Below are positions 11,295 through 62,206 of a stretch of DNA of 64,000 bases, piece after piece. The notes beneath the pieces are model-generated. The model searched no databases, was not told the origin of the DNA, and saw only the letters and a program-made list of their open reading frames with translations. Each line of letters starts with the position of its first letter. The stretch's first letter is position 1. Position numbers and translations under genes: made by a program. The stretch is from Escherichia coli (GTDB taxonomy: Bacteria > Pseudomonadota > Gammaproteobacteria > Enterobacterales > Enterobacteriaceae): NCBI RefSeq assembly GCF_045037415.1, contig NZ_CP173438.1; one strand, written 5' to 3'.

Positions 11295-12104
11295 CTAATT
11301 CGGGCGCTCACAAAGTGGGGCTAAATATTCATATAACGTTGCTGACGAAAAGGAGACATCGCCACAGGCACGTACGGGCATCACTGGCATTAACGCATTA
11401 CAAATAACCATCTCATCTGCCTGCAACGCCTCTTCCAGAGAGGCTTGCACTTCGACAAGCTGATAAGAGGATTGTGCCAGCAAACGGATACAGAATTGTC
11501 GCATAATGCCGTTAACACCTGCCTGATCCAGTCGCGGCGTATAAACTACGTTGCCCTTCCGCCAGAACAAATTAGCCGCACAGCATTCCGTAACCCACCC
11601 TTCGCTGTCAAGGACCAGCGCCTCATCAGCGTTTGTCTGCTCAAGATGAGAGCGGATCAATACTTGCTCAAGCCGATTAAGATGTTTAATACCTGCAAGA
11701 TGAGGATTGCGCCCCAGCCGCACCGGGCTTAGCGCCAACGTCATCCCTTCGTTACGCAAACGGTCGTAATGTGCAGGATAAGCCGTAACGGAGAGAATCC
11801 GCGTTGCCGGTCCACTGTTCAATGTGCTGTACCCTCGCCCGCCACTACCGCGACTGATCACGACTTTCAGTACACCATTTTGCTGTTCTGCTGCCAGCGT
11901 TTTCATCTCTTGTTCAAGCTGAGGCCAGAAGTCACAGGAAATCATCAACCGCTGACAAGCATCCTGTAGTCGCTGGATATGCGCCGATAACAAACTGACT
12001 TTACCGTCGATAACTCTGGCGGTGGTAAAACAACCATCACCAAACTGCGTTGCCCGATCGCTTACTGCCAGCGATTCCTGCTTATGACCGTTAATTAAGA
12101 ACAT
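11295..12104 (-). CDS. pabC: aminodeoxychorismate lyase
   Basis: 269 aa [31 protein letters not shown]...; class IV aminotransferase fold; synteny. Confidence 0.92.
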
Positions 12105-25381: not shown

Positions 25382-27025
25382 TTAGCGAATGTTAATCAGC
25401 GCATCAAAAATCGCGTTTGCCGTCTGCAGAACCTGCGCATTCGCGAGGTAATACTGCTGAAAACGTTGCAGATTTCCGTACTCCTCATCGAGATTGACAC
25501 CGGAAATCGACTGCTGCTGATTGGAAAGCTGCGTCACCACATTACCTTGAGTGGTGCTACTGGTTTTCAACGTCGCGGTTTTATTACCGATATCACTCAC
25601 TAACGAGGCATAAGCGTCGTTAAAGGATTTCGCACCGCCCACCGTTTTACTGTTGCTTTGCAGATCGAGCAGGGCCTGACCGTTGCGGTTGTCGCTATCA
25701 CCCGCATCTTCTGCGCTCGCCATGGCGATTTTCGCTTCGTCGGTGATTAATACATCCATGTTGACGATGGCGTCACTTACCGGTTTCAGCGTGAAGCTGT
25801 CGTTAACGGCAGGCGTTCCTGTAAACGTCAACTCCAGACCATCAAATGCCACTTTACCGTTGGCATCCGGCGTCACCGTAAAAGTGGTATTGCTGGCAAG
25901 GCGGGTGACCTGCCACTGATTATTATCGAACGAGATTTTGTAATCTGTCGCCAGTACCGCGGAGGTATCAGTTACCGTTGCACCGATCGCAACGTCACCT
26001 TTGTTTTTCGTGTTTTGCAGAACCGCGGGCTTACCGATAGCAAAGAAATCTTCACCGGCATCGCCGTTAGCATCAAATCCGGCTTTGTGTTGGGTGTTGA
26101 AAGCCTCGGCAAATGCCAGCGCCAGTTGTCCAAGCGTATTACGCGTCTGGTCCAGATCCTGAGAACGGAATGTCAGAATGCCGCCCAGCGACCCGGTATT
26201 CAGTAATTTCTCCGGGATCTCAATATTGCCTGCCGTCCCATCAACATAAGCGACAGTCGTACGAGAAGGGTCGGCGCTGGAAGGAACTGCCGCAAGTTGC
26301 CGCGCCGTACTTCCCTGAACCAGTGAGTAGCCATTGGCCATCGTGATGTTATAAGTGCCACCATCCTGAACACTGACTTCTACGCCAACAATCTGGTTTA
26401 ATTCGCTCACCAGTTGATCGCGTTGATCCAGCAGATTGTTAGGTGACGCCCCTGCCCCCACGCCTGTCAGGCGGGAGATCTGATCGTTCAGGCTGGCGAT
26501 TTGTTTAGCGTAATTGTTGATCTGATCAACACTGGCACCTATCGCGATATTGACCTGTTTGTCCTGGTCGCGCAGATATTGATCGGTGGTTTTAAACTGA
26601 TTCACCAACCCTTCTGATTTCCCAATCAGCGCCTGGCGCGCTGCCGGATCTTCCGCGTTACTCACCAGCGTTTGCAGGCTGGTGAAGAAATCCTGCATCT
26701 GTGTTGCCAGCGAAGAGGTACTGGTGGAGAGCATATTGTCGATTTTCGACATCTGCTCATAGCGGGCAGTCAGGCCGCTACTTTGCGTCTGCGCCGCACG
26801 TAACTGGTTGGTAATAAACGCATCATACTCACGCTGCACACCAGAAACGTAGACGCCATTGCCAACCCAGCCGCCAGCGCCCAACGTGCTATTGGCCTGC
26901 GCCATAATAGTGGTTTGGCGGGTATATCCGGCAACGTTATAGCTGGAGATATTATTACTTGCCGTATTTAACGCCGCCTGGGCCGCGTTCAGTCCGCTCA
27001 TGGCGTTATTGATCAAGCTGGACAT
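25382..27025 (-). CDS. flgK: flagellar hook-filament junction protein 1
   Basis: 547 aa ORF MSSLINNAMSGLNAAQAALNTASNNISSYNVAGYTRQ... Confidence 0.95.
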   Translation of the reverse strand: MSSLINNAMSGLNAAQAALNTASNNISSYNVAGYTRQTTIMAQANSTLGAGGWVGNGVYVSGVQREYDAFITNQLRAAQTQSSGLTARYEQMSKIDNMLSTSTSSLATQMQDFFTSLQTLVSNAEDPAARQALIGKSEGLVNQFKTTDQYLRDQDKQVNIAIGASVDQINNYAKQIASLNDQISRLTGVGAGASPNNLLDQRDQLVSELNQIVGVEVSVQDGGTYNITMANGYSLVQGSTARQLAAVPSSADPSRTTVAYVDGTAGNIEIPEKLLNTGSLGGILTFRSQDLDQTRNTLGQLALAFAEAFNTQHKAGFDANGDAGEDFFAIGKPAVLQNTKNKGDVAIGATVTDTSAVLATDYKISFDNNQWQVTRLASNTTFTVTPDANGKVAFDGLELTFTGTPAVNDSFTLKPVSDAIVNMDVLITDEAKIAMASAEDAGDSDNRNGQALLDLQSNSKTVGGAKSFNDAYASLVSDIGNKTATLKTSSTTQGNVVTQLSNQQQSISGVNLDEEYGNLQRFQQYYLANAQVLQTANAIFDALINIR

Positions 27026-27039
27026 GGAGGTTCCTTATA

Positions 27040-27080
27040 AGCCTTCAATTACAGAGTATTATCGGCAGCGACCCGCCGGA
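27040..27080 (-). promoter_or_regulatory. candidate sigma-28 (class 3) promoter of flgKL
   Basis: GCCGATAA -10 element on the minus strand (plus-strand ttatcggc at 27049-27056) just upstream of flgK; the -35 match is weaker. Confidence 0.45.
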
Positions 27081-27090
27081 CTTGAGTTAT

Positions 27091-28032
27091 TCAGAACAGA
27101 TTATCAATGTTCATGCTGTAGGTTTTGCTCACCTTGTCGCTTATCGATTTCATCTGCTGAATCATGTTGGTGAGTTTGCGGGCATAGTGAGGATCGGTGG
27201 CATAGCCCGCGTCCTGTAGGGCCTGCGCCCCCTGCTCCGCACTCGCGGCGGTCGTCACGGCGGCGTAGCGCGGGTTACGCGTTAACAGCCCAACGTAATC
27301 CGACAATGCTTCCAGATACGAGCTGTAGACCCGAAACTTCGCTTTTACTTTCTTCGCTTCGCCATTTTCATATTCAGTCGTGGTGATTTCAGTGACTGGC
27401 CCTTTCCAGTTGCCAGAGGCTTTGACACCAAACAGGTTATAGCTCGGCTCGCCGTTTTCACGGCGGATTTGCCGTTGTCCCCAGCCAGATTCCAGCGCCG
27501 CCTGAGCGAGGATCAAATGATGTGGCACACCACTTTGCTGGCTTGCCAGTTGGGCGGGCAGCGAGAGTTGCGCGAGGAATGCTTTACTGTCACCCGGCAG
27601 CGAATCATCGTAGTTACGTGGTACGGCCTTTTGCACCAGCTGCGAAAGCGTCTGATTTTGATAACGCACCACGGTTTCGAGCGGGAATTTTATCGGTGCT
27701 GCTGGCGTGGACTCCTCTGGCAATGGTTGTTCTGGCGTCATCTGTTTAACCATCATCTCTGCCAGCCCCAGACCTTTGCCCGCCGTCATCTGTTGGGCAA
27801 TCTGCTGGTCATACATACTGGTATACAGGCGAGTGTGCTCGCTGCTGAACAGGCCATCTTTTGGTAAAGCGTCGCGCATGCTTTTCAACATCATCTGCAC
27901 GAACATCCCTTCCACCTGGCGGGCCACCGGACGGATATTTGCCGCTGGATCTTCGCCCGCTTTCGCCTTTAGTTCGTTGAGTGATTGCGCATCCCAGGCC
28001 GCACTTGCCAGTAGTTTGCTGTCGCTGATCAT
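27091..28032 (-). CDS. flgJ: flagellar rod-assembly protein / peptidoglycan hydrolase
   Basis: ORF with [26 protein letters not shown]... start (ATG 28030-28032, 313 aa) and C-terminal glucosaminidase domain. Confidence 0.93.
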   Translation of the reverse strand: MISDSKLLASAAWDAQSLNELKAKAGEDPAANIRPVARQVEGMFVQMMLKSMRDALPKDGLFSSEHTRLYTSMYDQQIAQQMTAGKGLGLAEMMVKQMTPEQPLPEESTPAAPIKFPLETVVRYQNQTLSQLVQKAVPRNYDDSLPGDSKAFLAQLSLPAQLASQQSGVPHHLILAQAALESGWGQRQIRRENGEPSYNLFGVKASGNWKGPVTEITTTEYENGEAKKVKAKFRVYSSYLEALSDYVGLLTRNPRYAAVTTAASAEQGAQALQDAGYATDPHYARKLTNMIQQMKSISDKVSKTYSMNIDNLF

Positions 28033-34383: not shown

Positions 34384-34537
34384 ATCTCCTCCGCAGGTAT
34401 CAAAATTCTGCCATCAGCTTAAATGCCTTTACGCGCGCGTTATCGGCGGAATAAACGCAAAATGGGTCGCTATTTATGCCGTTGATGGTCATTGCGGACA
34501 GGTACAATTCACGTTGTAGAAATGGCTGGGGGCGAAA
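34384..34537. promoter_or_regulatory. divergent flgB / flgA promoter region (FlhDC-dependent class 2 promoters expected)
   Basis: 154 bp gap between divergently oriented flgB and flgA; contains a GCCGATAA-like element reading toward flgB (plus-strand ttatcggc near 34440). Confidence 0.6.
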
Positions 34538-35202: not shown

Positions 35203-35229
35203 TAAAGATTACCCGTCCCTTGCCGATAA
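35203..35229 (+). promoter_or_regulatory. sigma-28 (class 3) promoter of flgMN
   Basis: TAAAGATT (35203-35210) - 11 nt - GCCGATAA (35222-35229): near-perfect match to TAAAGTTT-N11-GCCGATAA, about 45 bp upstream of flgM. Confidence 0.8.
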
Positions 35230-35272
35230 ATAAGCAACACATGATAAAAGCGCCCTCAATGAGGAATAAACC

Positions 35273-42741: not shown

Positions 42742-42792
42742 TTATCCTTTGTGTCCGGCAAAAACATCCCTTCAGCCGGAGCATAGAGATTA

Positions 42793-51884: not shown

Positions 51885-51990
51885 TTGCCGGATGCGGCGT
51901 GAACGCCTTGCCAGACCCACAAAATCTTGCAAAATCAATAAATTGCAGGAACGATGTAGGCCTGATAAGCGTAGCGCATCAGGCAACTAC
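51885..51990. repeat. REP / BIME cluster downstream of opgH
   Basis: gccggatgcggcgtgaacgcc... and gtaggcctgataagcgtagcgcatcaggc, typical REP palindromes. Confidence 0.8.
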
Positions 51991-61454: not shown

Positions 61455-62206
61455 GTTGTCACCCTGGACCTGGTCGTACATTTAAGAAATTAAATCATTT
61501 CAACTTGGTTGTTAACGCAACCCGTATTTTGTTAACGCTGCGTTACGATGGAAAGTATGTCTGCGGAAATATTTTTAATAACTCACCCGCGCGTTGTATT
61601 TTTCTTTTTTTGTTCATACCAAAGTATTAAAACCCACGTAAATACGCTGTTATCTACGCAAAAAATATTTTGTTTTCTTTTAAATCTCCGTTTTCCGCTA
61701 TCAAAAATCACCAGACAGTCATTCTTCTTGCCCGTCGCTGATTGCTGCGATATGTCTTGCGCACAAGCCGTGACAAACCTCGTCTTTTTGCAGTAAAAAA
61801 TTGTCCACGGTGGTATGGAGAAAAAACAAGAACGTTTTACATGACGAAAGGACTACAGCGAAATATTTTTTATATGCATTATTAGTAAGTTAGCACCATT
61901 TGTATGATTTTTTAAAATTGTGCAATAAAAACCAAATGTACAACTTTTCTATCATTTCTAAACTTAATAAAACCTTAAGATTAACATTTTAATATAACGA
62001 GTTACATTTAGTTACATGTTTAACACTTGATTTAAGATTTGTAATGGCTAGATTGAAATCAGATGTAATCCATTAGTTTTATATTTTACCCATTTAGGGC
62101 TGATTTATTACTACACACAGCAGTGCAACATCTGTCAGTACTTCTGGTGCTTCTATTTTAGAGGCAGCTGTCAGGTGTGCGAACAATAAAAAAGCGGGGT
62201 TTCATC
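61455..62206. promoter_or_regulatory. csgBAC / csgDEFG divergent intergenic regulatory region
   Basis: 752 bp strongly AT-rich non-coding gap between divergent csgB and csgD; in E. coli it is known to hold the csgB and csgD promoters, many regulator binding sites and the long csgD 5' UTR. Confidence 0.85.

Follow-up and report, generated by a model that had tools for sequence, protein, structure and literature searches.

FliA is held inactive by FlgM and is freed when FlgM is exported, which happens once the hook-basal body is complete (introduction of PMC4183435). In Salmonella, flgKL is served both by a FliA promoter of its own and by the flgB operon (Kutsukake and Ide 1995 and Wozniak et al. 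2010, as cited in PMC4183435), and the text citing those reports describes the same dual class 2 and class 3 logic for the flgKL genes of Salmonella and of E. coli. For E. coli MG1655 the class 3 promoter of flgKL is represented in a table of FliA ChIP-seq peaks (Fitzgerald et al. 2014, Table 2; PMC4183435) by a peak assigned to flgKL, with the motif TCAAGTCCGGCGGGTCGCTGCCGATAAT and a fold-above-threshold of 47, the 10th strongest of the 52 listed. When reconstituted FliA holoenzyme was used for genomic SELEX in vitro, the spacer between flgJ and flgK gave the second-highest peak, 27.2 (Shimada et al. 2017; PMC5493296). The sigma-28 promoter of aer has the same octamer architecture, TAAAGATA-N11-GCCGACAT; mutations in its CCGA core or in its -35 element abolish activity, and its mapped start lies 6 bp past the octamer (PMC2859248). 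It differs in its dependence on CRP bound at -49.5, whereas a flgKL fragment gave no clear CRP binding (Hollands et al. 2010; PMC2859248).

The DNA considered here, called the window below, is a stretch of 64,000 nucleotides from E. coli (contig NZ_CP173438.1), and the element of interest lies on its minus strand between flgJ and flgK. An initial annotation, made from the letters alone, had proposed a sigma-28 class 3 promoter for flgKL at this place, a proposal in agreement with the sequence, with its conservation and with experiments published for identical DNA. The element is almost certainly the class 3 (FliA, sigma-28-dependent) promoter of the E. coli flgKL operon. This promoter is an already known and ordinary feature, and the one in the window is not merely similar to the published one but is that one: the locus is the same, there is no difference from MG1655 within the promoter, and the 28-mer of the window corresponds letter for letter to the flgKL entry of the ChIP-seq table (PMC4183435). 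For this very sequence there are published data on FliA holoenzyme binding, and FliA-dependent expression has been published as well.

The 65-nt flgJ-flgK spacer is non-coding and identical in the window and in K-12 MG1655; over the 121 nt compared there are two single-base differences, both in the flanking coding sequence of flgJ and flgK. A 2-kb piece around the flgK promoter has a match in 5,425 of 5,426 complete E. coli genomes, several strains matching at 100%, and in two stretches checked the window is colinear with E. coli strain SK1144, with 14000 of 14000 and 25997 of 26001 bases identical. By our own coordinate conversion, for which the offset between two MG1655 releases is taken to be about 777-778, consistent with the flgM entry, the centre of the FliA ChIP-seq peak falls at about 27060 of the window, within the -10 octamer.

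The search of E. coli genomes also turned up one complete genome without any flgJ-flgK match, and five of the approximately 5,430 places matching the region are in records labelled plasmids. In NZ_AP024560.1 the match covers the first 33 nt of a 141-nt flgJ-flgK query and no more.

Architecture of the promoter and its transcript

The gene order on the minus strand is flgB-C-D-E-F-G-H-I-J-K-L, flgAMN are on the plus strand, and rne is convergent with flgL. From the flgJ stop onward, the minus strand reads ATAAC TCAAGTCC GGCGGGTCGCT GCCGATAA TACTCTGTAATTGAAGGCTTATAAGGAACCTCC ATG. The features of the transcription unit, in the direction of transcription, and those of the flgM promoter used for comparison, are as follows.

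27093..27091, minus strand: flgJ stop codon TGA, read directly; flgJ ends at 27091
27078..27085, minus strand: -35 octamer TCAAGTCC, 5 of 8 positions matching the sigma-28 consensus TAAAGTTT; it starts 5 nt past the flgJ stop
27067..27077, minus strand: 11-nt spacer GGCGGGTCGCT between the octamers, read directly
27059..27066, minus strand: -10 octamer GCCGATAA, 8 of 8 positions matching the sigma-28 consensus, with the CGA core; found by exact search
27051..27053, minus strand: predicted transcription start, T-G-T, with G at 27052 likeliest, by analogy with the aer promoter
27032..27036, minus strand: Shine-Dalgarno sequence AAGGA, 6 nt ahead of the flgK ATG, read directly; invariant in an alignment of 19 genera
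25382..27025, minus strand: flgK coding sequence, 547 aa, hook-filament junction protein 1; start codon ATG with its A at 27025
24417..25370, minus strand: flgL coding sequence, 317 aa, second gene of the operon
24340..24416, minus strand: flgL 3' UTR, where the transcription unit ends at an intrinsic terminator with a 12-bp stem (24375..24347) followed by a T run
35203-35229, plus strand: flgM promoter, TAAAGATT-N11-GCCGATAA, just past the flgA stop

All the features by which a sigma-28 class 3 promoter is recognized at the level of sequence, namely the -10 element, the -35 element, the spacer, the strand and distance to the gene, and the matrix score, are found here. The 28-mer spans 27085..27058 of the minus strand, the CGA core of the -10 element occupies 27064-27062, and 33 nt on the sense strand separate the last A of the octamer from the flgK ATG, a distance that the initial annotation had put at about 25 bp. 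That annotation was right in seeing the octamer on the minus strand but placed it at 27049-27056, where the minus strand reads CTCTGTAA; the position was off by exactly 10, and the octamer still falls within the span of 27040-27080 for which it was reported.

The flgMN class 3 promoter is like that of flgK in its sigma factor, in its -10 octamer and in its 11-nt spacer, and like it overlaps a class 2 transcription unit, in this case flgAMN. It is the stronger of the two, with a -35 element TAAAGATT that matches the consensus at 7 of 8 positions as against 5 of 8, and with a matrix score of 24.4 as against 18.3 bits, so that a weaker -35 match at flgK, as had been claimed, is indeed seen. At the second position of the flgK -35 element there is a C (27084), and an A there would give TAAAGTCC. 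The flgMN 28-mer, TAAAGATTACCCGTCCCTTGCCGATAAA (35203-35230, plus strand), is the top matrix match of the window and is identical to its ChIP-seq entry, which has a fold-above-threshold of 48.

Because the start of the aer sigma-28 transcript lies 6 bp past its -10 octamer, the flgK transcript is predicted to start near 27052, some 6-8 nt past the -10 element, which would give a 5' UTR of about 26-28 nt. This predicted leader together with the start of flgK folds no better than shuffled sequences (z = -0.19). The supplements of Kim 2012 (PMC3415461) and Cho 2014 (PMC3923258) hold no entry for flgK or for the expected coordinate, a full-text search for a flgK transcription start determined by dRNA-seq returned unrelated organisms only, and flgK is unmentioned in the text of the bioRxiv version of Fitzgerald 2018.

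At the other end of the unit, the flgL 3' UTR, from the flgL stop to the terminator hairpin, corresponds approximately to FlgO, a sigma-28-dependent sRNA: it is Hfq-bound, is about 75 nt long, is processed from the flgL 3' UTR and is significantly decreased in a fliA deletion (Melamed et al. 2023; PMC10578931). A search of Rfam found no family at the promoter site or in the flgL 3' UTR, and FlgO is absent from Rfam 15. A second terminator, at 24241-24264 on the plus strand, ends rne, and so the convergent rne and flgL each have a terminator of their own. Elsewhere in the window there are gathering-level Rfam matches, all expected for this region of E. coli, to the rne 5' UTR element (20676-21012, plus), SraB sRNA (18647-18815, minus), the PyrC leader (42743-42792, plus), ES036 (CssrF) sRNA (51921-51963, plus) and ES056 sRNA (62061-62152, plus).

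Conservation across Enterobacteriaceae

Loci for comparison were fetched with a degenerate DNA pattern for the FlgK N-terminus YNVAGYTRQT, which gave 80 loci at one genome per species. About 20 genera are represented, among them Citrobacter, Salmonella, Enterobacter, Kosakonia, Leclercia, Lelliottia, Kluyvera, Cedecea, Atlantibacter, Siccibacter, Trabulsiella and Yokenella; Yersinia, Serratia, Proteus and Erwinia lie outside the reach of the pattern. At the same position, TCAAGTNN-N11-NNCGATA is present in 78 of the 79 usable species, and in as many upstream regions the best matrix match has the form TCAAGT[CT][CT]-N11-[GT][CT]CGATA[AC], one Citrobacter having TCAAGTAC. The octamer GCCGATAA is found unchanged in 65 of the 79 species, and 78 of them share CGATA. 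Those 78 all have a spacer of 11 nt, the sequence of which is nearly random from one genus to the next, without any compensatory pattern between the conserved blocks. In a motif-anchored alignment, in which the core columns are invariant by construction for the 78 passing sequences, the information content per column is 1.75 bits in the -35 element and 1.86-1.88 in the -10 element as against 0.46 in the spacer, 0.6-0.75 in the downstream flank and 0.77-0.88 over 40 nt on the upstream side, partly made up of the 3' end of flgJ.

Since anchoring fixes the core columns in this way, an unanchored MAFFT alignment was made with one sequence for each of 19 named genera, and its invariant blocks are CTCAAGT, CGATA, AAGGA and ATG. 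The -35 element starts 4-7 nt past the flgJ stop in most species, so coding constraint does not explain its conservation. That the octamers and their spacing are kept while the spacer is saturated with changes shows, as judged from the alignments, purifying selection on the promoter itself. The footprint across genera is thus a clean illustration of a promoter of this type, with two conserved octamers and between them a spacer fixed at 11 nt but free in sequence.

Salmonella (S. enterica subsp. arizonae and diarizonae; L050 and L064) is a case in point. Its flgK promoter has the same -35 octamer, TCAAGTCC, the same -10 octamer, GCCGATAA, the same 11-nt spacing and the same position after flgJ, but the spacer is wholly different, ACGTCGTAGCT compared with GGCGGGTCGCT in E. 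coli, and the leader is 1 nt shorter.

The sole exception among the usable species, L034, is a Buttiauxella metagenome-assembled genome in which the region upstream of flgK is longer and the best match scores 3.2 bits, 98 nt from the ATG. Upstream of flgK it has a GC-rich inverted repeat, GCGCCAGCGCCATCC...GGATGGCGCTGGCGC, that resembles a REP-like or terminator element inserted there. Leader length also varies: outside Escherichia, Citrobacter, Salmonella, Yokenella and Kluyvera, most genera have a flgK leader longer by about 10 nt (L004, L016, L018, L023, L052 and others), and some 10-30 nt past the -10 octamer these loci have a conserved CAGGACTC[AG]TGTCTGAA, with a possible 4-bp hairpin GGAC-N4-GTCT, that is missing in E. 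coli.

Of the other loci, 10 extend as far as flgM. There the flgM promoter retains TAAAGA, and flgK in the same genomes retains TCAAGT; each of the two promoters is, in these comparisons, seen to conserve its own -35 variant. TCAA variants of the -35 element occur in 5 of the 52 published FliA sites. What appears mildly new is that the non-consensus flgK -35 element, CTCAAGT, with C in place of A at position 2 and a fixed preceding C, is invariant across the genera aligned; it is the only observation of this analysis that we have not seen stated.

Read-through and other accounts of the conserved blocks

Scans of 26700-27500 gave no terminator-like site. With no terminator between flgJ and flgK, transcripts of the flgB operon can run into flgKL, and RT-PCR across the flgJ-flgK boundary gave an FlhD-dependent signal, evidence of read-through into flgKL from the FlhDC-dependent flgB operon (PMC4183435). 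The lack of a terminator before the class 3 promoter is what an operon under dual class 2 and class 3 control ('class 3a') calls for. To the initial reading as a class 3 promoter it should be added that read-through from the FlhDC-dependent flgB operon transcribes flgKL too.

How much the promoter adds to read-through is where an alternative has some hold. On this account, which is possible though we incline away from it, the FliA-binding site is largely redundant, flgKL comes mainly from flgB (class 2) read-through, and the class 3 promoter would matter only under special circumstances, filament regrowth or swarming for example. At mid-log phase in LB, deletion of fliA lowered flgK RNA from 318 to 138, a change not called significant, while deletion of flhDC affected the dual-regulated genes more than 100-fold, and the authors concluded that these genes are then transcribed mostly from the FlhDC-dependent promoter (PMC4183435). 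In Salmonella, swarming and the repair of sheared flagella are reported to require the class 3 promoters of flgKL and fliDST (Wozniak 2010, as cited in PMC4183435), which would suit such a restricted role. Against it stand the strict conservation of octamers and spacing over about 20 genera, around a spacer saturated with changes, the significant decrease of FlgO in the absence of fliA (PMC10578931), and the expression data from MOPS minimal medium, in which deletion of fliA reduced flgK 5.5-fold and flgL 4.9-fold (Zhao et al. 2007; PMC1935009). In the same study, 5 min after induction of FliA, flgK was up 2.2-fold and flgL 1.8-fold, and in a strain lacking FlhD overexpression of fliA brought flgK back to the wild-type level or higher (PMC4183435). 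Given the modest fall from 318 to 138 in LB, the share of the class 3 promoter relative to read-through depends on conditions, being small at mid-log phase in LB and larger in minimal medium. Redundancy so understood refines the identification of the element as the class 3 promoter of flgKL rather than excluding it.

It is far less probable, and we give it very little weight, that the conserved blocks are not a promoter but an RNA-level signal, such as a processing site or an element coupling flgK translation, in the read-through transcript of the flgB operon. The region is transcribed within the long flgB-L mRNA (PMC4183435), RNase E cleavage sites are reported for the region of the Salmonella flgK 5' UTR (in the second-hand account of PMC12399333), and neither the invariant C before the -35 element nor the invariant non-consensus C inside it is obviously required for recognition by FliA. 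The blocks nevertheless match the FliA consensus and the fixed spacing of 11 nt exactly, the sequence between them varies freely and without compensatory pattern, the E. coli leader has no significant fold, and direct binding of the holoenzyme is documented by ChIP-seq (PMC4183435) and SELEX (PMC5493296).

The matrix scan that had been suggested as a check bears on whether the motif could have arisen by chance. For a non-circular comparison the matrix was built from 50 published E. coli FliA sites with flgKL and flgMN left out; with it the flgK site scores 18.3 bits and ranks second of about 128,000 positions in the window, behind flgM, and a score of 18.3 bits is reached by 1 in 200 random 64-kb sequences. 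With a matrix from the 23 strongest sites the flgK site scores 16.2 bits and ranks fourth, a score that 13.5% of random 64-kb sequences reach. The matrix alone is thus suggestive, not decisive, for a flgKL promoter.

Two look-alikes score in the same range. One, TACAGAATTGTCGCATAATGCCGTTAAC (18.0 bits; 11489-11516, plus), is antisense in pabC, and the other, TCAACAATTTATCAGGCTGGCCGATGAC (17.0 bits; 1350-1377, minus), is in the sense direction in thiK. Both are absent from the 52 published FliA ChIP-seq sites; they may be either spurious or intragenic sites of very low strength. What separates the flgKL site from them is its position, published binding and phylogenetic footprinting, and not a matrix scan alone.

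Nor is the octamer GCCGATAA by itself rare in the window, with 8 copies against 2.5 expected from shuffles. Five of the eight are in coding sequence with -35 matches of 0-3, and a usable -35 element accompanies only the flgK and flgM copies. With flgM excepted, the other seven copies were rejected as FliA promoters, their -35 matches being just 0-4 of 8. One of them (34440-34447, minus) lies in the divergent flgA-flgB spacer on the sense strand of flgB, 56 nt before the flgB ATG (34383); its -35 counterpart CCCATTTT is poor, 4 of 8, and the ChIP-seq table has no FliA peak there. FlhDC-dependent class 2 promoters have -10 regions that resemble the sigma-28 -10 element.

The abundance of the octamer, which frequent codons would make common and which mostly falls within genes without a -35 element, and the equal-scoring matches in pabC and thiK outside the ChIP-seq list, could be taken to mean that the flgK copy is a chance occurrence without promoter function, an idea that hardly survives the following: the copy is in a non-coding spacer of 65 nt, on the correct strand and with a 5 of 8 -35 element at exactly 11 nt, the expectation for a sense-strand octamer in that spacer with a -35 match of at least 5 of 8 at the exact spacing being about 3e-5, and the site is bound in vivo (PMC4183435) and in vitro (PMC5493296) and conserved in 78 of 79 species. 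Just as improbable is transcription of flgK from a sigma-70 rather than a sigma-28 promoter in the spacer, in favour of which no point was found, a consensus scan giving 0 sigma-70-like sites in 26700-27500 and flgK responding to FliA even without FlhD (PMC4183435). For the class 3 promoter of flgKL itself, what weighs against it, besides the modest effect of fliA deletion in LB, is that its -35 element matches at only 5 of 8 positions and that its score with the 23-site matrix is met by chance in 13.5% of random sequences, and the motif alone would not be decisive.

The promoter in flagellar assembly

RNA polymerase carrying FliA recognizes TCAAGTCC (27085..27078) and GCCGATAA (27066..27059), 11 nt apart on the minus strand, and transcription would begin about 6-8 nt downstream, probably near 27052. 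The transcript would consist of an unstructured leader of about 27 nt, flgK, flgL and the 3' UTR with the terminator and FlgO. In keeping with established knowledge of the flagellar hierarchy, the release of FliA after completion of the hook-basal body would allow the promoter to boost the hook-filament junction proteins late in assembly. Read-through from the FlhDC-dependent flgB promoter also yields these genes, and because the class 3 promoter directly follows the flgJ stop with no terminator between, flgKL is under dual class 2 and class 3 control.

In E. coli strains U12A-U15A the match to 26000-28000 of the window falls into two pieces with some 776 bp between them, for which the annotation gives an IS1 family transposase, and flgJ is annotated as two parts; the IS1 appears to break flgJ just upstream of the flgKL promoter. 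In these strains flgKL could rely on the class 3 promoter alone.

The discovery value is small, as this is a textbook class 3 promoter that has been mapped in E. coli by ChIP-seq, SELEX and expression and earlier in Salmonella. Its value is rather one of calibration, a genuine sigma-28 promoter having been recognized from raw sequence despite a counting error of 10 bases. That the flgK promoter is kept deliberately sub-consensus, by selection on a promoter-specific -35 variant, is a doubtful proposition for the present, and any cause is speculation. If true, the -35 variant could do more than keep FliA binding intact: it could set how strongly or when flgKL is expressed within class 3, or could fit a second, overlapping signal.
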